38,533 nucleotides of DNA. Source: Candidatus Yanofskybacteria bacterium (GTDB taxonomy: Bacteria; Patescibacteriota; Minisyncoccia; 2-02-FULL-40-12; IGHO2-12-FULL-4). Made by a program: the position numbers and the translations under genes. The notes under the pieces were generated by a model that worked only from the letters and a program-made list of their open reading frames with translations, was not told the origin of the DNA and ran no database searches. The stretch is taken from contig JACOZX010000017.1 in the NCBI GenBank assembly GCA_016181105.1, positions 1 to 38,533 of the forward strand. The letters run 5' to 3'. Shown piece by piece: positions 14,439 through 38,533 of this stretch; positions within the stretch are counted from its first letter, which is position 1, and each line of letters begins with the position of its first letter.

Positions 14439-15353
14439 TTAAAAAAACTTTCTTGCCATTTTGTAAGCCAAAAACCAGAACCAAGAGAGGGAAAGATCAA
14501 AAGAACCCGGATGCTCAACAACTTTCCCGCCCCAACCCAGTTTAAATCTTGTTACTCCCGGCCACTTATTGGCATCTATACCCCAAAAGTCATATAACTC
14601 AAAACCTAAAGCTTTTAACTCTTTAATCACTTCCCAATGTAACTTATGCGGAGCCATATAACTTCTGTAGTCGTAATCCGAAGCCCCGTGAAGATAGTAG
14701 GCAGTATTTTTATAAGTTAGCAAAATAAGTCCGGCAACCGGTTTGTCTTTATAATAAGCGAGGCTCAACCTTGATGTGATTTCTTTGCCGTCATTGAAAA
14801 ATTTCAAAAGTTTTTCGTAGTAATCTTTAGTATGAGAAGAAAATTTATCTCTCTTTGCGGTTTTTTTTATTAAGTTCCAGAAAGATTCAAAATCGTCGCT
14901 TTCTTTAACAACAATCCCGTTTTTTTCCGCAACTTTAATGTTGTATCTGGTTTTGTGATGCATCGCGTCAAGTAAGTCGTCTTCACTTTTGAACAAATCC
15001 AAAATAACTGTTTTGGACGGTTGTATTTCTTTTTTAGATTTTTTAAATTTATGCTCCGCAAAAACCTGAGCAACACCGTCGGACACAGGTTCCATTTTTA
15101 TAAAAATTGATTTTTCTTTTTTGGCTAGTTCCCGCAACCAGACAACAAAGTTGCTTATCGGATTTTTTAAACCTCCGGCCATAGAATTAAAATCCATCTC
15201 CGGCCCGTGAGCAACGTAAAGATAGCTTTTCTTGAAAGGCTCGGGCAATTTTATAACTCCCGCTTTAATTCCCTCTTTGTCATATTCAAAAACAGGCCTA
15301 CTTAAAGACCTTTGAAAGTCAAGCCAGTCTTTTGATTGGAGAAAACTGCTCAT
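14439..15353 (-). CDS. FemABX/MurM-family peptidoglycan aminoacyltransferase
   Basis: SFLQSKDW, KTRYNIKVAEKNG, YLHGAS, YDFWGI, GVTRFKLGWGG motifs. Confidence 0.92.
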   Translation of the reverse strand: MSSFLQSKDWLDFQRSLSRPVFEYDKEGIKAGVIKLPEPFKKSYLYVAHGPEMDFNSMAGGLKNPISNFVVWLRELAKKEKSIFIKMEPVSDGVAQVFAEHKFKKSKKEIQPSKTVILDLFKSEDDLLDAMHHKTRYNIKVAEKNGIVVKESDDFESFWNLIKKTAKRDKFSSHTKDYYEKLLKFFNDGKEITSRLSLAYYKDKPVAGLILLTYKNTAYYLHGASDYDYRSYMAPHKLHWEVIKELKALGFELYDFWGIDANKWPGVTRFKLGWGGKVVEHPGSFDLSLSWFWFLAYKMARKFF

Positions 15354-15949
15354 TTTTTGTTCTTACCTAAAATCCGCAGGGATTCCTTAATTTTATCTTC
15401 TGAACTCTTGGCGTTAGCCGAGACCTCTTTTAATGTTTCTCTCGCTTGATAAGTTGAATAACCAAGAGCAACCAAAGCATCAATCGCTTCGCCTTCAGAA
15501 GCAAAATCTCGGTCTTGGCCCACACCAAGACCTTTTTCCAATAATTTGTTTTTCAGCTCCAAAATTATGCGCTGGCTGGTTTTGGACCCGACGCCGGACA
15601 ACTTTCTTAAATAGTTATCATCGCCTTTGATAATTGCTAACTGCAGTGTCTGCAAATCAACAGACGAAAGTAATCCCTGCGCCGACTTTGGCCCGACGCC
15701 GGAAACAGTCAAAAGCAACTGAAAAAAAGCTAATTCCTCCGGCTTTTCAAAGCCGTAGAAATCAAAAATCCCTTCCCGGGAATTGAAATTTGTATAAATA
15801 AAAAGCTTGACTTGTGAGCCTACTTTTGATAAAATACCATGAACTCTTTCCGGCAATATGACCCTATAGCCTATCCCGCCTGTATTTACTATGACCGATC
15901 GGTCGGAAACCGCTTCAATTGTGCCGCTGATGAACGAGATCATCCTCAT
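15350..15949 (-). CDS. ruvA: Holliday junction branch migration protein RuvA
   Basis: MISFISG, GGIGYRV, HhH motifs VSGVGPKSA and LSGVGSKTS, EAIDALVALGY. Confidence 0.97.
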   Translation of the reverse strand: MRMISFISGTIEAVSDRSVIVNTGGIGYRVILPERVHGILSKVGSQVKLFIYTNFNSREGIFDFYGFEKPEELAFFQLLLTVSGVGPKSAQGLLSSVDLQTLQLAIIKGDDNYLRKLSGVGSKTSQRIILELKNKLLEKGLGVGQDRDFASEGEAIDALVALGYSTYQARETLKEVSANAKSSEDKIKESLRILGKNKK

Positions 15950-15988
15950 ATTGTTTCATAAAATAATACTTTTTTAAAGTAAGGCGGT

Positions 15989-16194
15989 AGTTAGTCTGGC
16001 AAACATTGCTTTTTCCGGACGCTCGCTTTTTTCCGGCGAAAAAGATTGCTCTTTGTAAGCTGTGGATTCGGAAAGAAGACTTTCCGACCAGCTCGCCGCT
16101 TTTTCATCTTATTCTGCTGAATGGGCTGAAAAAGCGGCTCGCGAGCAATCCACAGCTTACAGAGCCTCCAAAAGCAATGTTTGCCAGACTAACT
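15989..16194 (-). repeat. Structured dispersed element, copy A (206 nt; MITE-like or ncRNA)
   Basis: Perfect 25-bp terminal inverted repeat (15989-16013 / 16170-16194) plus nested stems; reverse-complement homolog of 29631-29839. Confidence 0.9.
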
Positions 16195-16205
16195 TTACTT
16201 TTACC

Positions 16206-18200
16206 TTGTTTAAACTCACATCAAAATTTAAACCAACCGGTGATCAACCTCAAGCGATTGAGAAGCTTGTAGCTGGCTTAAAATCCGGCTTAAAACATCA
16301 AACGCTTTTAGGCGTAACCGGCTCCGGTAAAACTTTCAGTATAGCCAACGTCATCACCGAAATTAAAAAACCGACTTTGGTTATTTCTCCAAACAAAACT
16401 TTGGCCGCCCAGCTTTATCAAGAGTTTAAAGAATTCTTTCCCCAAAACTCTGTCCACTATTTCGTTAGTTATTATGACTACTACCAGCCGGAGGCCTACA
16501 TACCCCACACCAACACTTACATAGAAAAAGATGCCCGCATCAACGAAGAAATTGACAAACTCCGCCACGCCGCAACTCAAGCCTTATTGACCAGAGATGA
16601 TGTGATTATAGTCGCTTCAGTATCCTGTATCTATAACCTCGGTTCGCCGGAAGAATACAAAAAAATGAGTTTGGAAATTTACGAAGGCCAAAAAATGACC
16701 GGCGCAGAACTGCACAAAAATTTAATCCGACTGCAATACGCCCAAGATATAGAACTTAAAAGAGGCAAATTTAGAAAAACCAGCGAAGAATTTGAGCTGA
16801 TACCGGCAACCGGCGACCGGTTAATAAAAGTTAAAATTTTAAATAATAAAATAAAAAAAATCAGCGTAGCCGAAAATATTGATTTAGAGGCTTTGGATTT
16901 TGGCGATTTGAAATATCACAGGATAATTGAAACAAAAATTTTCCCGGCAAAATACTGGATTGCTCCGCAAAACAAACTTTCTATAGCTTTAAGCAACATT
17001 AAGGCCGAATTGGACAAACACATTAAGAAATTAAAAAAAGACGGCCGAAGCGAAGAAGCTTGGCGGCTGAAAGAGCGCACTGAACTGGACTTGGAAATGA
17101 TTAAGCAAACCGGCTACTGCCACGGCATTGAAAACTACTCTTGCCACCTTGATTTTAGAAGTCCCGGAGATCCGCCCTACACAATGCTGGATTTTTTCAA
17201 AACAAAAAAAGATTTTTTGACCATAATTGACGAGTCGCACATTACCATTCCCCAGATTAGAGGCATGTTTCACGGTGACCATTCAAGAAAATCAACGCTT
17301 ATAGAACACGGCTTCAGATTGCCTTCAGCAATTGATAACCGGCCTTTAAAATTTGAGGAGTTCTCTGAAAGAGTAAATCAGGTAATTTATGTTTCCGCGA
17401 CCCCAAAGACTTTTGAGTTGAAAAAATCGGGTAGGAAAGGTCTGGCCGAACAGTTAGTCAGGCCTACAGGACTTCTTGACCCGACCATTGAGGTATTGCC
17501 GACCGAAGGCCAAATCCCCCACCTCATTTCAGAGATAAAAAAGAGGATAGCCAAAAAACAAAGAGTCTTAGTAACCACTCTGACCAAAAGAATGGCTGAA
17601 GACCTTTCAGAACACTTGGCCAATGAGAAAATCAAAGTTAACTACATACACTCTGAAATTAAAACTTTAAAACGATTAGAGATTATACATGACTTGCGCT
17701 TAGGCAACTATGACGTCATCGTCGGGGTTAATTTGTTAAGAGAAGGCTTAGACCTGCCGGAGGTTTCTTTAATAGCAATTTTAGATGCTGACAAAGAAGG
17801 CTTCTTGCGCAACACAACTACTTTAATCCAAACTATGGGTCGCGCGGCCAGAAACGTTGACGGCCACATTGTGATGTATGCCAACAAAAAAACTAAATCT
17901 ATGGAAGCGGCAACTAAAGAAACTCTGCGCCGCCGAAAAGCGCAGGAAAGATATAATCTGAAAAATAAAATCACACCCACGACAGTTTATAAAGAAATTA
18001 AAAAAAGCGACCTGCCGGCTTCAGCAACACCCAAAGTGATTTACGCCGGCTACGACTTTTCAAAAACATCTGAAGAACTTTCTGTTAAGAAAAAACTGGA
18101 AGAATTGCAAAAAGAAACAAGTAAAGCTATTAAAAAACTGGACTTTGAAAGAGCAATGGTGATTAGGGAGCAGATAAAAGAGCTGAGGAAACTGGTTTAA
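16206..18200 (+). CDS. uvrB: Excinuclease ABC subunit UvrB
   Basis: PTGDQPQAI, GVTGSGKT, YYDYYQPEAY, IDESH, GRAARN. Start moved to TTG 16206 because the upstream extension translates element copy A. Confidence 0.97.
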   Translation: MFKLTSKFKPTGDQPQAIEKLVAGLKSGLKHQTLLGVTGSGKTFSIANVITEIKKPTLVISPNKTLAAQLYQEFKEFFPQNSVHYFVSYYDYYQPEAYIPHTNTYIEKDARINEEIDKLRHAATQALLTRDDVIIVASVSCIYNLGSPEEYKKMSLEIYEGQKMTGAELHKNLIRLQYAQDIELKRGKFRKTSEEFELIPATGDRLIKVKILNNKIKKISVAENIDLEALDFGDLKYHRIIETKIFPAKYWIAPQNKLSIALSNIKAELDKHIKKLKKDGRSEEAWRLKERTELDLEMIKQTGYCHGIENYSCHLDFRSPGDPPYTMLDFFKTKKDFLTIIDESHITIPQIRGMFHGDHSRKSTLIEHGFRLPSAIDNRPLKFEEFSERVNQVIYVSATPKTFELKKSGRKGLAEQLVRPTGLLDPTIEVLPTEGQIPHLISEIKKRIAKKQRVLVTTLTKRMAEDLSEHLANEKIKVNYIHSEIKTLKRLEIIHDLRLGNYDVIVGVNLLREGLDLPEVSLIAILDADKEGFLRNTTTLIQTMGRAARNVDGHIVMYANKKTKSMEAATKETLRRRKAQERYNLKNKITPTTVYKEIKKSDLPASATPKVIYAGYDFSKTSEELSVKKKLEELQKETSKAIKKLDFERAMVIREQIKELRKLV

Positions 18201-18206
18201 AACTTC

Positions 18207-18363
18207 GTCATTATACCTCTTCGGGACTTCAGAATCCCCAGCGAGGATTCTTCATCAGAAAAAGTTGCTCGTCTTGTCAAGAACCCTTCGCTTTAAGAAA
18301 AGCTCCGGGTCGTTGACAAACCGTGCCCCTCGCAACTTTTACTGCCCTCAGAGGCATAATGAC
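18207..18363 (-). repeat. Structured element, divergent copy B (157 nt) with a hammerhead-like core
   Basis: 14-bp terminal stem GTCATTATACCTCT/AGAGGCATAATGAC, hairpin AGAATCC-CCAGCGA-GGATTCT, stems AAAAGTTGC/GCAACTTTT and TTGTCAA/TTGACAA. Confidence 0.75.
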
Positions 18364-21122: not shown

Positions 21123-22244
21123 CTATCTAAACAAGGGCGGGACTTTGGAATCAATCAAGAATATAATTATGCCCAAAATAGCGCCGATGGCTGAAATCAT
21201 CCAAAAACGCATGGTGACTTGGGTCTCCGGCCAACCCAAAGCTTCAAAATGGTGATGAATTGGAGTAGATAAGAAAATCTTTTTTTTGCGAATCTTTTTA
21301 GAAGCCGTCTGTAAAATCACCGATAAGGATTCCAGAACAAAAACCACGCAGATAATTGGAAGGAGAAGAAATGTGTTGGTAAGCATGGCAACAACACCCA
21401 AAACAAAGCCCAGAGCCATGACACCGGTATCGCCCATAAAAAACCTTGCCGGATAAATGTTAAACCACAAAAAAGCCACTAAAGCTCCGACGATTGCGCT
21501 AATAAAAACAACCAAGTCCGTGCGGCCCTGAACAAAAGCAATAGCCCCCAAAGCAGCAAACGATAGAAGAAAAATCCCTCCGCTCAAGCCATCAAGACCA
21601 TCTGCTTCGTTTGCGGAAAAAGCGGTGGCCATAATTACAAAAATAAAAATCGGGATATACCAAAAACCTACCACGAAGTCCCCAAAAAAAGGAATATTTA
21701 TAAAATCCCAGTCTAGTTTGTGATAGAACCACCAAGCGCCTCCTGCCGCTAAAATAGAGTATAGAAAAAGTTTTCGTTTCATGCTTAATCCGCCACGCTT
21801 GACAATTCCAAAAATATCATCAGCCATTCCAACCAATCCGGCCACAATCAAAAATCCCAAAGGCAAAAGTGTCTGACCGCGGGAAAGAAAATTTAAATTT
21901 GACCAGAATCCTGCCTGACCGGCAGGCAGGCCATGCCTACCGGCAGGCAGGCCGTCAAAAATCTTTGAAAAATACCAAAAAACCAAAGTAAGAACAGCCA
22001 CGGTAAACCAAATTATAAACCCACCCATGGTTGGCGTACCTTCCTTTTTTTTGTGAAGAGCATTGAAAATCGGCGTTTCTCCCCAAAAAGTATTCTTATC
22101 ACGCTCTATTTCTTTGCCAGGGCGAAAATATTTCAGCAATATTTTGCTCCAAATTGGGGTAATCGAAATCGCCACAAAAAAAGAAATTGTGGATACCGCA
22201 AAAATCTTGACTACATTAAAAACTGTAAAAAGGTTGTTATCCAT
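21123..22244 (-). CDS. mraY: Phospho-N-acetylmuramoyl-pentapeptide transferase, with a 14-aa repeat-derived insertion
   Basis: KKEGTPTMGG, GMADD, NEADGLDGL, FMGDTG, PIHHHFE motifs. Confidence 0.96.
   Translation of the reverse strand: MDNNLFTVFNVVKIFAVSTISFFVAISITPIWSKILLKYFRPGKEIERDKNTFWGETPIFNALHKKKEGTPTMGGFIIWFTVAVLTLVFWYFSKIFDGLPAGRHGLPAGQAGFWSNLNFLSRGQTLLPLGFLIVAGLVGMADDIFGIVKRGGLSMKRKLFLYSILAAGGAWWFYHKLDWDFINIPFFGDFVVGFWYIPIFIFVIMATAFSANEADGLDGLSGGIFLLSFAALGAIAFVQGRTDLVVFISAIVGALVAFLWFNIYPARFFMGDTGVMALGFVLGVVAMLTNTFLLLPIICVVFVLESLSVILQTASKKIRKKKIFLSTPIHHHFEALGWPETQVTMRFWMISAIGAILGIIIFLIDSKVPPLFR
21910..21951. repeat. Two tandem 21-nt palindromic units in frame in mraY
   Basis: CCTGCCTGACCGGCAGGCAGG + CCATGCCTACCGGCAGGCAGG; encode LPAGRHG-LPAGQAG. 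Confidence 0.88.
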
Positions 22245-25499: not shown

Positions 25500-25628
25500 T
25501 GTTTATTTAGACCAACACAAATACGTCCTATAATCTTACAGAAACAAAAAACAATTGGAAATAGTGATTTAAAAAGTAGCCCGGCAAATATTGTTTTTTC
25601 CGGACTACCCACAAACCTGACGACCTGA

Positions 25629-28448: not shown

Positions 28449-28521
28449 TCCGCCCGGTTGGAGTCGAACCAACGACCATCTCCTTAAAAGGGAGTTGCTC
28501 TACCAGCTGAGCTACGGGCGG
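28449..28521 (-). tRNA. tRNA-Lys(UUU), CCA not encoded
   Basis: Acceptor stem CCGCCCG/CGGGCGG, D arm GCTCAGCTGGTAGAGC, anticodon loop CTTTTAA, T arm GTTGGTTCGACTCCAAC; upstream TTGCTA-17-TAAAAT. Confidence 0.95.
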
Positions 28522-28577: not shown

Positions 28578-29561
28578 TTATTTAAGCGCAAGGTCGTTAA
28601 GAAATTGTTGGAGTGCCGCTTGAACCAACCTTAAATCTTCCTCTTTTGAAACAATAAAAGTCTTGCCTCTGCCATTTAAATCCGATTTATCTTTGCTGTT
28701 ATTCTTCAGGTCACGGATTCTCTTTTGTACAATCTGTGAAAAAAGGTTATTATTGAAGATTTTTTCTATTCTTTCAAGAGAAGAAGCCAAGGCAAGGTCG
28801 TCGTAACCGCTATTTCTAAGCATGGTCTGACCGTTTCTGTCAGCCTCACTTTCATGCTCTAAGGGCAGAATGCCCACAAACTCGTTATAGCCAAATAACT
28901 TTTGCGCGGCTAGACCCAAAAGCACGACTTTTTCAAAATCCTTTGCAACGAAGGCTTTTTGAGCAAAGACGGTAAGATTTTTGACTATTCTTCTGGACTC
29001 GGCCACATGTCTAAGCGCGATGTGGCTGACTTCATGGCTCAAAAGAGCCGCCAGTTCGGCTTCATTATTAGCCCACATTATTTGGGTAGTACCGACATAA
29101 ATAGTTTCGGCCGGCAAAGCAAAAGCATTGTTGGTTCTGCCGACAAAACGGTCGTCGTAGAGACGAAGTTTTAAAACCCTGTTTTTCCACTCCTCTGAAA
29201 AATCTTTTTGTAAATTTGCAAGAATGAGTTCAAGGTATTGTTTTGTTTTTTCATGTTCTAGGACAATATTATAGTCCTGGGATACCAAATCAACAGATTC
29301 GTCCATCTCAAAATCATCTTTCAGCGGAGGCAGAGCCCCGCTGTTTCTAATTTCCAAAACCAAAAGGTCTATTTCTTTTTCTAATTTTGCGTAAGACGGT
29401 AAATTTCCCGGCGATCCTTTGTTTGGTATCTGGTCTTCAGACTGATTCAGAAATATAAAAAAGAAAACAACAAGAAGAACAAAAACTAAAAAGAAGATAA
29501 CCTCCCTAGCTCTATAAAGATTACCAAAACCGCCATCATTGCCAGATTCGTCTTCCGACAT
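28578..29561 (-). CDS. Membrane-anchored M48-family Zn metalloprotease
   Basis: NAFALP, EAELAALLSHEVSH (HEXXH), ESEADRNG; one N-terminal TM. Confidence 0.88.
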   Translation of the reverse strand: MSEDESGNDGGFGNLYRAREVIFFLVFVLLVVFFFIFLNQSEDQIPNKGSPGNLPSYAKLEKEIDLLVLEIRNSGALPPLKDDFEMDESVDLVSQDYNIVLEHEKTKQYLELILANLQKDFSEEWKNRVLKLRLYDDRFVGRTNNAFALPAETIYVGTTQIMWANNEAELAALLSHEVSHIALRHVAESRRIVKNLTVFAQKAFVAKDFEKVVLLGLAAQKLFGYNEFVGILPLEHESEADRNGQTMLRNSGYDDLALASSLERIEKIFNNNLFSQIVQKRIRDLKNNSKDKSDLNGRGKTFIVSKEEDLRLVQAALQQFLNDLALK

Positions 29562-29630
29562 CTCGTCACTCCAAATTTTCAACGACCTTTCATCAGATTA
29601 ACACTAAAAAAATACCAAAACAACTACCGC

Positions 29631-29839
29631 CTTAGTTTGGTGAATAATGCTTTTGTAGGCTCTGTGGGCTGTGGATTGCTCGTGAGTCACTTTTTCAGCC
29701 CATTCGCTGAAAGCGAATAAGATGAAAAAGTGACGAACTGGTCGGAAAGTTTTCTTTCAGAATCCATAGCCCACAAAGAGCGAGTTTCTTCGCTGGAAAG
29801 AAACGAGCGTCCGAAAAAAGCAATATTCACCAAACTAAG
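29631..29839 (+). repeat. Structured dispersed element, copy C (209 nt)
   Basis: 24-bp terminal IR with one mismatch (29631-29654 / 29816-29839); nested stems TGTGGGCTGTGGATT/AATCCATAGCCCACA, GTCACTTTTTCA/TGAAAAAGTGAC, GTTTCTT/AAGAAAC. Confidence 0.9.
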
Positions 29840-29846
29840 CGCCTAG

Positions 29847-31130
29847 TTATTTGACATAGTTCAAAAGCATGTTGAGCAGTCTTTCTTTCTCCGCGGTAAC
29901 TTTCTGCCGATGTTCCGGCACGGCGCAAATTCTAACGCAGAGATACTTCTCCACTTCTCTGTCAAGCAAATTAAAATAGGCCGGATCTTTTTCTTTCAAA
30001 GAGTAGCTCTTCGGACCGTCAAAAAAGAGAATGTCCTGCGGGATAAAACGGTCGCGTTCAACAATATGGCTGACCGCCACCTGCCAGCTTTTTAAATCAA
30101 GCGTTTTGGCAATTTGCGACTCAATAGTTTCCAGATCGCTTGGGCTGGATTTTTCGTAAAACCTGTCAAAAAATTCTTTGTCGGCCTCATAAACATCAAT
30201 CGGTTTACCGGCTCGTCTTTCAAGCCAGCCATAACCCTTCAGACGTATTGATATAGCTGTTTTAGGAAAGTGTTTGACGCCGCTATCAAAAATTTTTATG
30301 CCGTTCATAACGGATTCGTTCCGGCATTTTTTTAAAGCATGTATCAAATCGCCGTCCACCATATCCCACAACTCGTCTTCGCCGATACCGCCTTGGCCAA
30401 GAGGCGTGTGCAATAGCTGGTAGATAAGTTTTTGCATAAACCGCTGGATAAGATAGTTGCTTTTTTCCAAATGCACATTGCGATAAAAATAAATGTAAGC
30501 TCTTTGGATTTCCATGGCTGAATCCAGAGCCTTGAGGTCAACCGCCAGTTTGCCGTCCCTGAAATCAAGATGATTGAAAACGCTTTCTACGCAATATCTG
30601 ATGTTCGGTCCAAATTGTGTAGATTCTTGGTCTCGGATAAGATAATCCAGCTTCTCCATGCCAAAATTTTTATCGTCAACAATCTTGCCTTTGGGGTCCT
30701 GCTTGGACATATATTTTTTTATCAACTCCAAATCGCCGCCGCAGGCTTTAATATCGTCAACCATCTTGTCCAAAATCTTGAGTCCATTGGTATGATGATT
30801 ACGTTCAGTAAAAACTTCTATCACATGAGACAGCGGGCCATGTCCGATATCATGCAAAAGAGCGTAAAGATTTAAGTTGACCTCTTCTTGATTGGTAAGA
30901 ACACCCAGTTTAGCCATTTTGGCGGTAAATTGAGACGTCCTGTAATAGGCACCCAGAGAATGTTGTCTGCGATCGTGAGTTGCGCCCGGAAAAACTAAAT
31001 AAGCAAGAGAGAGCTGACGCTTGTCGCTCAAGCGTCTAAAGTAGTGATTATCAACAATAGAGGCAATAGGTTTTTTATTAACTTGGCCGATGCCAGGCCA
31101 AGGAATCCACTTGTCACTTTGATTTATCAT
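29847..31130 (-). CDS. HD-domain phosphohydrolase (SAMHD1/COG1078-like dNTPase family)
   Basis: RLSDKRQLS..YLVFPGATHDR.QHSLG, LLHDIGHGPLSH, KLDYLIRD. Confidence 0.9.
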   Translation of the reverse strand: MINQSDKWIPWPGIGQVNKKPIASIVDNHYFRRLSDKRQLSLAYLVFPGATHDRRQHSLGAYYRTSQFTAKMAKLGVLTNQEEVNLNLYALLHDIGHGPLSHVIEVFTERNHHTNGLKILDKMVDDIKACGGDLELIKKYMSKQDPKGKIVDDKNFGMEKLDYLIRDQESTQFGPNIRYCVESVFNHLDFRDGKLAVDLKALDSAMEIQRAYIYFYRNVHLEKSNYLIQRFMQKLIYQLLHTPLGQGGIGEDELWDMVDGDLIHALKKCRNESVMNGIKIFDSGVKHFPKTAISIRLKGYGWLERRAGKPIDVYEADKEFFDRFYEKSSPSDLETIESQIAKTLDLKSWQVAVSHIVERDRFIPQDILFFDGPKSYSLKEKDPAYFNLLDREVEKYLCVRICAVPEHRQKVTAEKERLLNMLLNYVK

Positions 31131-32745
31131 CGTCTTTTTTATTGACAATTTGCCCCAGAGTTTCCCTCAAACCCCGCAAGTCAACAACAGCTTTCTCTGA
31201 AGAAGTGATTGGCTTCTTGTTTGAAACAGGAGCTGGCGGCGTAATTTTTCTGCCCCTGAAATCAACCGGACCGCTTCTTATAGCTTCCTGCAAAGAGGCC
31301 GGTTTTTGCTGTGCCGGGGACTGCGGAGAGATGCCGGAACTTGATGAAGACGGGTAGTGGTCTCTGTCCGGCGCGTACGTTCTTTCTCTCGGCTGAAATG
31401 GTGTTTGAAATTGAGGCGGATATGGTCTTTGGGACGGTTCTTTTCTAATCTCCGGCTGAATTAACTTGGCCGACCATTCGCCAATTTGTTTTTCAACTTC
31501 TTCTTTCGGATGAGCGTAAGTTTCTCTGGAAAAAGCAAGTATTTCCTTGGCATAGCTGACGTCCGGTCTTGGCCAAGGTGGCAGAGTATTGGCGGAAAAA
31601 GCTCTGGAAGCCACACCGTCTATCATCAGTTTCAAATAAATCTGCCATTTGGCCAAATTCACCAGGTCGTTTTCCGTAAAATCAGGAGCAAATTCTTTTT
31701 CCAAAATTTCCGCGTCTTCAGCGCCAATTCTAAAAGTAACAATCGTGCCAACGTTGCCGAAAACCGCTTTCTGCACCTCCTCCTCCATCTGCGCTATGTA
31801 CTGATGGGCAATAACCAAATTTAGCGCAAATTTTCTGGCTTCAGACAAAATGTTAGCAAAAGATTCAGTGGCAAAGTGCTGGAATTCGTCAACATATAAA
31901 TAGAATGAGGCCCGTTCTTTTTCCGGAATATCAGCCCGAGACATGGCGGCCAGTTGAATTTTGGTAATCATCATTGCGCCCAGCAGACGGCTGACATCTT
32001 CGCCAATCTTGCCCCTCGAAAGATTCATAATTAAAATTTTCTTCTCATCCATCACCTTGCGCACGTCAAGGGTAGATTTAACTTGACCCAAAATATTGCG
32101 GATAAGGCTGGAAGAGGTGAACTGGCCAACTTTGTTTTGCACTGAAGCCGTCGCCTCTGAAGCCAGACGATCCGTGTATTTGGCAAACTCCTGCGTCCAG
32201 AAAGCCTTTACCAACGGGTCGGTAATTTTTTCCACCACAGCTCCGCGAAATTCTTTTTCGGCAAGCATACGGTTGATGCCCAAAATAGTCGCTCCCGGAA
32301 ACTCCAGCAAAGCCAAGATGGTGTTATTCAAAATATACTCCATACGGGCCGAAAAGACCTCAACTCCAAAAACTTTTTTAAAAACGCCAAGCAAACCGGA
32401 GGCGACCAAGTGGCGGAAACGGTCGTCCACCTGCTCCATAACGTTAAAAGCGATGGGAAAATCCAAATCAGAAGGATCAAAAATAACCACATCTTTTATC
32501 CTTTCTTTGGGCACAAAATTAGGCAAGTCATCAGCGGTGTCGCCATGAGGGTCAATAAAAGCCACCCCCCGGCCGGCCTGAATATCCTGAATGACCATAT
32601 TTTTCAAAATTTCCGTCTTGCCCATGCCGGTCTTTCCGATGACATACATATGCCGGTCACGGTCGCCCTGCTTAATGCCAAAACGGGACCGCTGATTGCG
32701 AAAGTTAATTTCTCCAAATAATACCTTATCGTTGTCCATAAACAT
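31114..32745 (-). CDS. VirB4/VirD4/HerA-like P-loop ATPase (type IV secretion coupling-like)
   Basis: RHMYVIGKTGMGKT, FIDPHGD, LYVDEFQHF, ILSEARKF, AHQY; Pro/Gln-rich C-terminal tail. Confidence 0.9.
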   Translation of the reverse strand: MFMDNDKVLFGEINFRNQRSRFGIKQGDRDRHMYVIGKTGMGKTEILKNMVIQDIQAGRGVAFIDPHGDTADDLPNFVPKERIKDVVIFDPSDLDFPIAFNVMEQVDDRFRHLVASGLLGVFKKVFGVEVFSARMEYILNNTILALLEFPGATILGINRMLAEKEFRGAVVEKITDPLVKAFWTQEFAKYTDRLASEATASVQNKVGQFTSSSLIRNILGQVKSTLDVRKVMDEKKILIMNLSRGKIGEDVSRLLGAMMITKIQLAAMSRADIPEKERASFYLYVDEFQHFATESFANILSEARKFALNLVIAHQYIAQMEEEVQKAVFGNVGTIVTFRIGAEDAEILEKEFAPDFTENDLVNLAKWQIYLKLMIDGVASRAFSANTLPPWPRPDVSYAKEILAFSRETYAHPKEEVEKQIGEWSAKLIQPEIRKEPSQRPYPPQFQTPFQPRERTYAPDRDHYPSSSSSGISPQSPAQQKPASLQEAIRSGPVDFRGRKITPPAPVSNKKPITSSEKAVVDLRGLRETLGQIVNKKDDDKSK

Positions 32746-38452: not shown

Positions 38453-38533
38453 TCTGACTTAGCGATAATTGCTTTTGTAGGCTCTGCAGGTTGTGGATTG
38501 CTCGCGAGTTACTTTTTCAGCCCATTCGCCGCA
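38453..38533 (+). repeat. Structured dispersed element, copy D (truncated by the window end)
   Basis: 38470-38529 matches 29648-29707 at 55/60 nt; the upstream terminal arm differs mostly by transitions. Confidence 0.88.

Follow-up and report, generated by a model that had tools for sequence, protein, structure and literature searches.

What are the repeats of about 200 nt that lie between genes in the 38,533-nt contig JACOZX010000017.1 (GCA_016181105.1) of a Candidatus Yanofskybacteria bacterium: mobile elements or copies of a noncoding RNA? This contig, the whole stretch analyzed and hereafter the window, is contig C48 of a genome designated G000, which comes from groundwater metagenomes and comprises 693,257 bases in 61 contigs, with 41.7% G+C and a completeness rating of 100%; G001 to G005 and similarly numbered genomes are the relatives compared with it, the sister species including G001, G002, and G003. 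A first-pass annotation of the window had left the choice between the two answers open. Here, we report that the fold of the repeat is under selection, that this selection is strand-specific, and that copies have been gained, lost, truncated, and replaced between sister species. The reading that we favor, with a probability of about 0.55, is a new superfamily of structure-dependent, small, noncoding, nonautonomous mobile elements of a candidate phyla radiation (CPR)-type class, moved in trans.

Copies of the element and their common fold

The three copies described in the first-pass annotation (A, C, and D) were borne out at their positions in the sequence, with copy A inverted relative to C and D. 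The element of these copies is called family 1 here, and the strand read by its covariance model, plus in copy C, is called the modeled strand. Copy A (15987..16196; score of 234 bits) is full length, and its selected strand is the minus strand. Copy C (29630..29845, plus strand) is full length, while copy D (38456..38533, plus strand) is cut by the contig end after its 5′ ~78 nt, which hold the 5′ arm of the terminal stem P1, the junction, the central stem, and the beginning of the apical domain. Read on the minus strand, the P1 of copy A has its 5′ arm at 16170..16194 and its 3′ arm at 15989..16013, an inverted-repeat pair of 25 nt that is 100% complementary and forms a perfect 25-bp stem. 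The corresponding arms of copy C, at about 29631..29654 (including the junction UUUU) and 29816..29839, are 96% complementary. The paired differences reported between A and C were likewise present in the sequence, namely, TCTGGCAAAC/GTTTGCCAGA versus TTTGGTGAAT/ATTCACCAAA in the terminal stem, TGTAAGC/GCTTACA versus TGTGGGC/GCCCACA in the central stem, and GCCGC/GCGGC versus GTCAC/GTGAC in the apical stem, as were the loop TCGCYGG and the conserved linkers. The annotation was right on these three copies, but its inventory missed the size of the family across the genome and two further features of the window: the remnant of another copy on the minus strand at 25577..25605 (29 nt), of which only the 3′ end is left (GUCCGGAAAAAA plus the 3′ arm of P1, matching 15992-16020 at 86%), and a copy of a second family at 18205..18357.

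Copies of family 1 are about 150-260 nt long and fold, in order, into P1, a junction, a central stem, an apical domain, a variable hairpin (P4), and a 3′ hairpin (P5). P1 is a long terminal stem of about 20-25 bp, free in sequence and constant in pairing; its arms are nearly wholly different between subfamilies yet still paired, and the end sequences are unconserved. At the junction, a 5′ (C)UUUUG-N-AGG pairs with a 3′ CCGGAAAAAG, the apical domain carries the conserved loops CAGCCCAUUC and GAAUAAGAUG, and P5, on the 3′ side, carries the invariant loop UCGCUGG. P5 and GUCCGGAAAAAG together make up the 3′ module, which in copy A spans 16010..16048 on the minus strand (loop UCGCCGG at 16033-16039, then GAGCGUCCGGAAAAAG) and in copy C spans 29782..29819 on the plus strand (loop UCGCUGG at 29790-29796, then GAGCGUCCGAAAAAA).

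The fold is under strand-specific selection

Taken singly, both complete copies of the window fold far better than shuffled sequences, with -102.6 kcal/mol and a z score of -11.0 for copy C, -114.9 kcal/mol and a z score of -13.2 for copy A, and none of 200 shuffles as good in either case. The complement of copy A folds about equally well (z score of -14.5), so that single folds are uninformative on the strand. A covariance model (R1) was built from 13 copies of G000, for which RNAalifold predicted 68 pairs on a MAFFT alignment. As many as 42 of the 68 pairs keep pairing through two-sided changes, compared to 22.6 in shuffles, and 96.0% of the cells of this alignment are paired, compared to 81.2%; no shuffle among 500 reached any of five covariation measures. 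When the partners were slid as a control, only 42-48% of cells were paired and 11-16 pairs showed two-sided changes. In a model-fitted alignment of 124 hits from 21 genomes, 66/68 pairs change on both sides, a count to be read in the knowledge that this alignment leans toward the model and contains 17 weak opposite-strand rows.

Dropping these rows left 107 distinct copies, which showed on which strand selection acts. G.U pairs outnumber A.C mismatches by 372 to 87 in these copies, and by 214 to 55 once the loosely aligned apical helices are set aside. The bias is seen in every class of neighbor orientation (44:8 for sense, 86:25 for antisense, and 26:4 for divergent). Independently of any alignment, the modeled strand is more stable than its complement in 99/107 copies with RNA parameters and in 103/107 with DNA parameters. 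The 107 copies are kin, so p-values overstate the case, but the direction of the strand bias is clear. Selection on the fold, acting on RNA or single-stranded DNA (ssDNA), had been proposed in the first-pass annotation, and the larger alignments confirm it and show that it is strand-specific; the annotation's remark that one G.U pair favors the plus strand of copy C also held, this being the strand selected family-wide.

These results bear directly on the view that the element is an ordinary MITE (miniature inverted-repeat transposable element) of a DDE transposon, in which the palindrome would be a by-product of inverted ends whose symmetry is maintained by template switching or gene conversion, in the absence of structural selection. 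The element is indeed small, noncoding, multicopy, and intergenic, it has inverted-repeat ends, and its copies do swap segments. Template switching alone, which had been named as a process that could undo the case for structural selection, could account for P1, but it does not explain the four inner helices and the strand bias. Altogether, five separate helices covary, well beyond the ends, and the excess of G.U over A.C of about four to one on one strand is not what symmetric DNA-level processes give. With its unconserved end sequences, family 1 also lacks what such a MITE would carry at its termini. We consider this explanation highly improbable and close to refuted.

Copies turn over between sister species

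The comparison of filled and empty sites at ruvA-uvrB and at the HD-M48 spacer, suggested as a check in the first-pass annotation, revealed empty, remnant, and re-occupied states. The site of copy C is empty in G002 (19-nt spacer), holds a 37-nt spacer retaining 10 nt of the 3′ end of the element in G003, and is skipped in related-strain contigs from three sequencing runs, in which 29579 is joined to 29847. The ruvA-uvrB spacer, occupied by copy A in the window, is empty in G005 (54 nt), contains a 45-nt 3′ remnant of an A-like copy together with a different copy in the opposite orientation in G002, and contains another, different copy in G004. Elsewhere in G000, one of two neighboring copies (C26_8633) is represented in G003 by a 27-nt 3′ remnant only; the other (C26_7902) has a counterpart in G003, but with apical, P4, and P5 modules of another subfamily. 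Overall, of the five sites compared in the window or genome, three differ between sister species in whether a copy is present. Taken together, sites that are filled, empty, reduced to a remnant, or occupied anew in sister species indicate that the element moves; the choice between a mobile element and a functional RNA, and that between ssDNA and RNA, has been narrowed only.

Copies also exchange segments, as shown by swapped and reticulate modules. A further orthologous pair displays compensated changes in P1 along with swapped modules, and the 13 aligned copies of G000 combine their modules reticulately, the same type of P5 occurring with different types of P4 and apical domain.

Truncation has a preferred direction. 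Remnants nearly always keep the 3′ 10-50 nt of the element, as seen at 25577-25605 in the window, at the site of copy A in G002, and at two sites in G003; two 3′-end remnants (C46 and L129) adjoin full copies, and one remnant (C8) keeps the 5′ end instead. Such 3′ fragments are what would be left by incomplete copying if the element were mobile as an RNA in the manner of short interspersed nuclear elements (SINEs), that is, if the modeled strand were transcribed and trimmed at P1, with its 3′ module serving as a handle for a reverse transcriptase (RT) acting in trans and the cDNA being inserted. The complexity of the fold suits RNA, and the same 3′ module occurs in two otherwise different families (see below). 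However, at least two of the remnants descend from full copies that are still present in sister species and are therefore deletions rather than short insertions, remnant C8 has the wrong end, and neither target duplications, tails, nor a promoter in the element or its 5′ flank were found. We regard SINE-like mobility as quite unlikely.

Three additional differences between relatives were observed at or near these sites. The ruvA-uvrB spacer of G001 (L070, G001:C3:3739-3987) and of G003 (L069, G003:C13:767-1010) contains a conserved insert of ~245 nt that is unrelated to the element and could be another noncoding element. The region beside the tRNA gene of the window (28449-28521) is rearranged in G002 (L094, G002:C7:26084-26345), where it contains part of the tRNA end along with a GC-rich palindrome and a complete copy of family 1 absent from G000, in an alignment that is not clean. 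In G003 (L103, contig C11), just 3′ of the copy at 1001-1229, a 13-nt tandem duplication carries ACTTAAAACTACT twice, and the orthologous site of G000 has it once.

Placement at gene ends and the case for a functional RNA

Copies lie scattered among housekeeping genes, either alone or as pairs. In the window, the neighbors had been named correctly: copy A lies between the divergent genes ruvA (15350-15949, minus strand) and uvrB (about 16206-18200, plus strand), and copy C lies between the genes for an M48 peptidase (28578-29582, minus strand) and an HD-domain protein (29847-31148, minus strand), antisense to both and with its 3′ end 8 nt from the stop codon of the latter. Neighboring genes, callable for part of the 107 copies, were taken from a crude open reading frame picker (at least 90 aa, longest first), which leaves start codons especially uncertain. 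On these calls, 47 copies are antisense between co-directional genes, 22 are sense between such genes, 11 lie between divergent and 1 between convergent genes, and the remaining 26 are at a contig edge or too distant from any gene. On the modeled strand, the median distance from the 3′ end to the adjacent reading frame is 4 nt where this end faces a convergent stop codon (n = 56) and 13 nt where it faces a start codon (n = 36), whereas the 5′ end keeps a median distance of 70-83 nt; a convergent stop codon falls at -4 to +18 nt of the 3′ end in 47/107 copies. Keeping the promoter of the downstream gene explains the antisense class only, and the placement rule is not fully explained by it.

The flanks revealed few other signals. 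Direct repeats flanking the 107 copies are no commoner than in shuffled pairings of left and right flanks, which gives no indication of a target duplication. The 5′ flank has A at -1 in 54% and T at -2 in 40% of cases, a weak TA preference with no fixed word, the element end being uncertain by 1-3 nt. Neither the element nor its 5′ flank gave a positional promoter signal: TATAAT-like hexamers matching at 5/6 positions or more occur upstream in 36/106 copies on the modeled strand and in 45/106 on the other, and consensus scans at copies A and C returned no promoter-like site and one weak terminator-like site, within the expectation from shuffles. As no signal marks the strand, we rejected the idea that the element, or the flank 5′ of it, supplies a promoter. 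A role as a terminator was rejected as well, a T-run following P1 in 18% of cases on the modeled strand and in 17% on the other. The 5′ arms of P1 from 17 copies of G000 had no match of at least 14 nt outside elements with an E value below 0.02, and a guide-like role for P1 was rejected for targets inside G000.

These observations allow the strongest rival to be weighed, in which the element is a multicopy functional RNA whose copies are genes or cis-acting mRNA elements (for processing, stability, or insulation) kept in place, with rare new copies arising by duplication or gene conversion. Its unpaired motifs are conserved class-wide, its junction resembles RNA motifs (GNA/GGA in family 1 and tandem G.A in the second family), its placement at gene ends is tight, and certain intergenic sites carry copies in more than one family of the order. 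Moreover, the two copies of one orthologous pair are 98.5% identical between flanks that are only 76-86% identical. On the other hand, the same site holds opposite orientations or other subfamilies in relatives, the neighbors are unrelated housekeeping genes, and the flanks bear no promoter- or terminator-like signal that would mark the modeled strand. The copies between co-directional genes are two-thirds antisense, so that read-through would yield the wrong strand, and the G.U bias is unchanged among them. The element is, besides, missing from 74 of the 101 genomes searched in the order (see below). Given this mixture of orientations and the turnover between sister species, a purely functional RNA that stays in place is less likely, and we rate it as unlikely overall.

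A second repeat family shares the 3′ module

Self-comparison of G000 revealed further repeat families besides family 1. Family 2 has 11 copies of 150-185 nt in this genome, one of them in the window on the minus strand (18205..18357). This copy has the 5′ junction and the 3′ module, whose UCGCUGG loop and GUCCCGAAGAG lie at 18220-18244, and it borders the uvrB stop codon with its 3′ end, in keeping with the placement rule of family 1. The strand carrying the UCGCUGG loop folds into a variable, compensated P1 and a junction in which CUCU-GA-GGG is paired with CCC-GA-AGAG; 19 of its 53 predicted pairs show at least two Watson-Crick types, and G.U outnumbers A.C by 29 to 2. Families 1 and 2 have in common the 5′ junction and the 3′ module, consisting of a 7-bp hairpin, the UCGCUGG loop, GUCC(G/C)GAA(A/G)AG, and the 3′ arm of P1. 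The module pattern TCGCTGGN{9,12}GTCCSGAA had 21 matches in G000 and was present in 15/101 genomes, whereas the reversed control had none, and G020 contains a run of near-identical family 2-like copies. That families 1 and 2 form one superfamily of structured mobile repeats is real and well supported.

Family 3 is a hairpin of ~75 nt with about 12 copies in G000, a core of the form …GCCUCUUUUUUGCG…ACUGCAAAAGAGGC…, and a variable, compensated outer stem; examples outside the window are C61:14381-14510, C61:49584-49672, C60:3638-3685, and C15:9841-9915. Family 1 occupies about 25 places in G000, family 2 has 11, and family 3 about 12; as a rough sum, these repeats make up near 1% of its DNA. We also noted a GC-rich palindrome of ~20 nt (CCTGCCTGCCGGCAGGCAGG type), similar to repetitive extragenic palindromes (REPs), at 21910-21935 in the window and at 11 other places in G000. 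Hairpins related to it sit inside some copies of families 1 and 2.

Family size and distribution

Searches of the whole genome and of its relatives, as the first-pass annotation had advised, turned the three copies of the window into a large family. With nhmmer, we recovered 15 copies of full length in G000, together with a number of partial or divergent ones; the covariance model found 20 matches, giving a genome total of at least 20 copies. Among 101 related genomes, G000 counted, the model detected family 1 in 27, with 1 to at least 22 copies per genome (22 being the highest number of candidates scored), and not in the other 74. Genomes with 10 copies or more are G000 to G005, G008, G018, G020, and G026. 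Apart from G000, the element-bearing genomes include 8/8 of taxonomic family f1, 13/26 of f4, 4/58 of f3, and 1/8 of f2. In broader samples, the model found family 1 in 17/151 genomes class-wide and in 5/151 phylum-wide, one of the latter being G000 and three being weak single matches in other classes.

The earlier statement that the element belongs to no recognized family was upheld by searches against Rfam 15. At the gathering score, the whole window matched only a tRNA at 28449-28521, and at an E value of up to 1 six copies of the element matched only PK-repBA (E value of 0.079, with 21 bits where the gathering score is 45), which we regard as noise; a known RNA family was thus ruled out. 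A plasmid or phage origin was rejected on the absence of BLAST matches at an E value of up to 0.001 in 72,556 plasmid and 50,697 phage records. In viral contigs, the covariance model found no element in 80 of at least 114 stretches selected by a loose module pattern, nor in the 3 stretches selected by a stricter one, of which L415 and L417 are chance matches. Over genome contigs, the loose pattern gave chance matches in unrelated phyla and is uninformative on distribution. A literature search, which did not reach supplementary files, returned no account of such repeats in CPR bacteria (Patescibacteria).

Candidate mobilizing enzymes

The first-pass annotation had seen no mobilizer in the window, and we found none there, in the rest of the genome, or next to copies elsewhere. 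Among the proteins flanking 96 loci, no cluster spanned more than 4 loci, the clusters being orthologous housekeeping neighbors. No junction-motif pair with complementary arms more than 195 nt apart was present in G000, and an autonomous parent in this genome was rejected, since no longer version was found.

Co-occurrence was likewise uninformative as to the mover. Five types of candidate, among them the Y1, IS110, and RT genes proposed earlier, were searched for in the same 101 genomes, and none tracks the element. Y1_Tnp was detected in 51 genomes (18/27 with and 33/74 without the element), RVT_1 in 76 (22/27 and 54/74), rve in 31 (10/27 and 21/74), the TnpB zinc ribbon in 4 (0/27 and 4/74), and IS110 in 3 (1/27 and 2/74). 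The single rve-type match of G000 could be taken to speak for a DDE MITE, but rve was not found in G002, G004, G005, G018, G020, and G026, which carry 10-22 copies, and no DDE_Tnp_1 or DDE_3 match was obtained in G000; the remaining profile matches there were one Phage_integrase (a tyrosine recombinase) and two Resolvase (large serine recombinases). In the same way, the presence of RVT_1 in most element-bearing genomes would suit a SINE-like process, except that RT is equally common without the element and was not found in five genomes that have it (G029, G032, G044, G067, and G080). The only RT gene of G000 (C58:6039-7473, or L177:3040-4474), on a different contig from the window, is divergent from a bAvd-like gene and thus belongs to a diversity-generating retroelement.

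Apart from three Y1 genes (C31:10807-11430, C1:1863-2567, and C61:14988-15650), which are IS200-like or RAYT-like and encode 207-234 aa, G000 has no transposase-like paralogues. No element copy is adjacent to any of these three genes. Such genes reach 8 per genome among the 101 relatives.

A proposed structure-dependent element moved in trans

In the interpretation that we favor, an enzyme acting in trans would use the 3′ module, present in family 2 as well, to recognize the folded single strand, and would copy or move the element. By analogy with IS200/IS605-derived elements and REPINs, the intermediate may be ssDNA handled by an HUH-type or similar structure-specific enzyme. The absence of duplication, the strand specificity, and the fact that HUH-type genes are the only transposase-like paralogues point in this direction, and we tentatively rank it first. 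An RNA intermediate ranks second and is less probable; it is suggested by how complex the fold is, by the conserved loops and the tandem G.A junction, and by the 3′ remnants and the 3′ handle that the two families share. The small number of sense-oriented copies inside operons may reflect selection against exposing the active strand.

Several observations weigh against this interpretation. With five helices and some 50 conserved unpaired bases, the fold is more elaborate than any known HUH substrate, and mobility is known from the comparison of sites, no excision or insertion event, circle, or transcript having been caught. No candidate enzyme tracks the element; in particular, Y1_Tnp was not found in G005, G020, and G026, each with 11-12 copies, and each Y1 gene of G000 is flanked by inverted palindromes of its own that differ from the element. 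The selected strand is the C-rich one in 19/25 copies of G000, which is opposite to IS608-type transposition on the lagging-strand template if the G-rich strand is leading, although the GC skew of this genome follows gene direction, making the direction of replication inseparable from that of transcription. Finally, the orthologous pair at 98.5% identity may also reflect strong constraint in place.

A different possibility is that the folded RNA itself is the active entity, a new mobile or self-propagating structured RNA that works as a ribonucleoprotein or by self-processing. P1 would then join the 5′ and 3′ ends, and the core with the UCGCUGG hairpin would draw in an enzyme of the host or of a retroelement, such as the diversity-generating-retroelement RT that is common in these genomes. 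We consider this rather improbable; if true, these would be the first SINE-like retroelements of bacteria, spread across a whole CPR class. More generally, if RNA is the mobile form, the element would represent a new type of retroelement in bacteria.

The genomes of such bacteria are among the smallest and most streamlined known, and this tiny genome nonetheless contains no fewer than three families of small structured repeats. Should the mover of the structured repeats be found, it would likely be a structure-specific enzyme open to re-aiming or a known enzyme in a new use. In practical terms, the family breaks assemblies, as indicated by the position of copy D at the contig end, and it can be used to trace the history of strains in groundwater populations.

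Comparison with known systems

REPINs are nonautonomous, fold as single strands, cause no target duplication, and often lie just after genes. Family 1 resembles the REPIN/RAYT system in its nonautonomous folded strand, in its lack of target duplication, and in the presence of Y1 genes in G000. REP/REPIN sequences are extragenic and show stem-compensating changes (PMC3116915). However, REPINs are simple doublets of 20-35-nt hairpins, compared to the five-helix fold of ~200 nt seen here. Furthermore, a REP-RAYT system has its Y1 gene flanked by the same repeat, whereas the Y1 genes of G000 carry other palindromes, and co-occurrence with Y1 is not apparent (18/27 element-bearing versus 33/74 other genomes). 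IS200/IS605-derived palindrome-associated transposable elements (PATEs) also fold on a specific strand, with no recognition of inverted repeats and no target duplication, and family 1 agrees with them in having no duplication and one active strand. In contrast, PATEs have separate subterminal hairpins at each end, while both ends of family 1 pair together; a fixed target of 4-5 nt at the left end has no counterpart in the 5′ flank of family 1, where no fixed word is seen, a weak test since the end is uncertain by 1-3 nt; and the orientation bias of family 1 is opposite to that of IS200/IS605-type elements.

Other small repeats and mobile systems differ more. SINEs share tails with their partner long interspersed nuclear elements (LINEs), and the shared 3′ handle, the paired ends, the conserved junction G, and the 3′-end remnants of family 1 may be seen as analogous to features of these pairs and of the msr-msd RNA of retrons. 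Family 1 differs in having no linked or tracking RT, no tails, and no duplications. A retron noncoding RNA has an RT gene alongside, whereas the flanks of family 1 are housekeeping genes and the sole RT gene of G000 is on another contig; integron attC sites form a cassette array beside an integrase, whereas copies of family 1 are dispersed and G000 has one tyrosine recombinase. Like DDE MITEs, family 1 is small, noncoding, and multicopy, with filled and empty sites, but it has neither the fixed-length target duplication nor the conserved inverted ends shared with an autonomous insertion sequence, and no flanking transposase recurs. Small palindromic repeats of compact genomes, some with no known mobilizer, include Correia elements, whose inverted ends of 26 bp are conserved and which show a TA duplication, as well as ERIC and Rickettsia palindromic elements. 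Nemis is likewise a small palindromic repeat that has spread in compact genomes (PMC3184786). None of these (Correia/nemis, ERIC, and Rickettsia elements) is known to have a conserved multi-loop core common to several families.

The nearest described system is that of the bcr repeats of the Bacillus cereus group, with REPINs and IS200/IS605-derived elements coming next. There, bcr1 is an interspersed repeat of ~155 bp with a compensated multi-stem fold and no transposase of its own, reported to be transcribed and flanked by 5-bp direct repeats, and bcr repeats form several families in one genome, at positions unconserved among related strains (PMC3184786). Family 1 is similar in its compensated fold, its shifting positions, and the presence of several families per genome. 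Unlike bcr1, it has no flanking direct repeats and occurs in another phylum, and the two are set apart here by description rather than by sequence; the description of bcr1 in the sections of that paper drawn on here mentions no shared 3′ module, no strand bias, and no placement at stop codons. Family 1 fails a defining feature of bcr repeats, of REPINs, and of IS200/IS605-derived elements alike, and it presents an unusual mix of an RNA-like multi-helix core, selection on one strand, mobility with no duplication or known enzyme, a module shared between families, and placement at the ends of genes.

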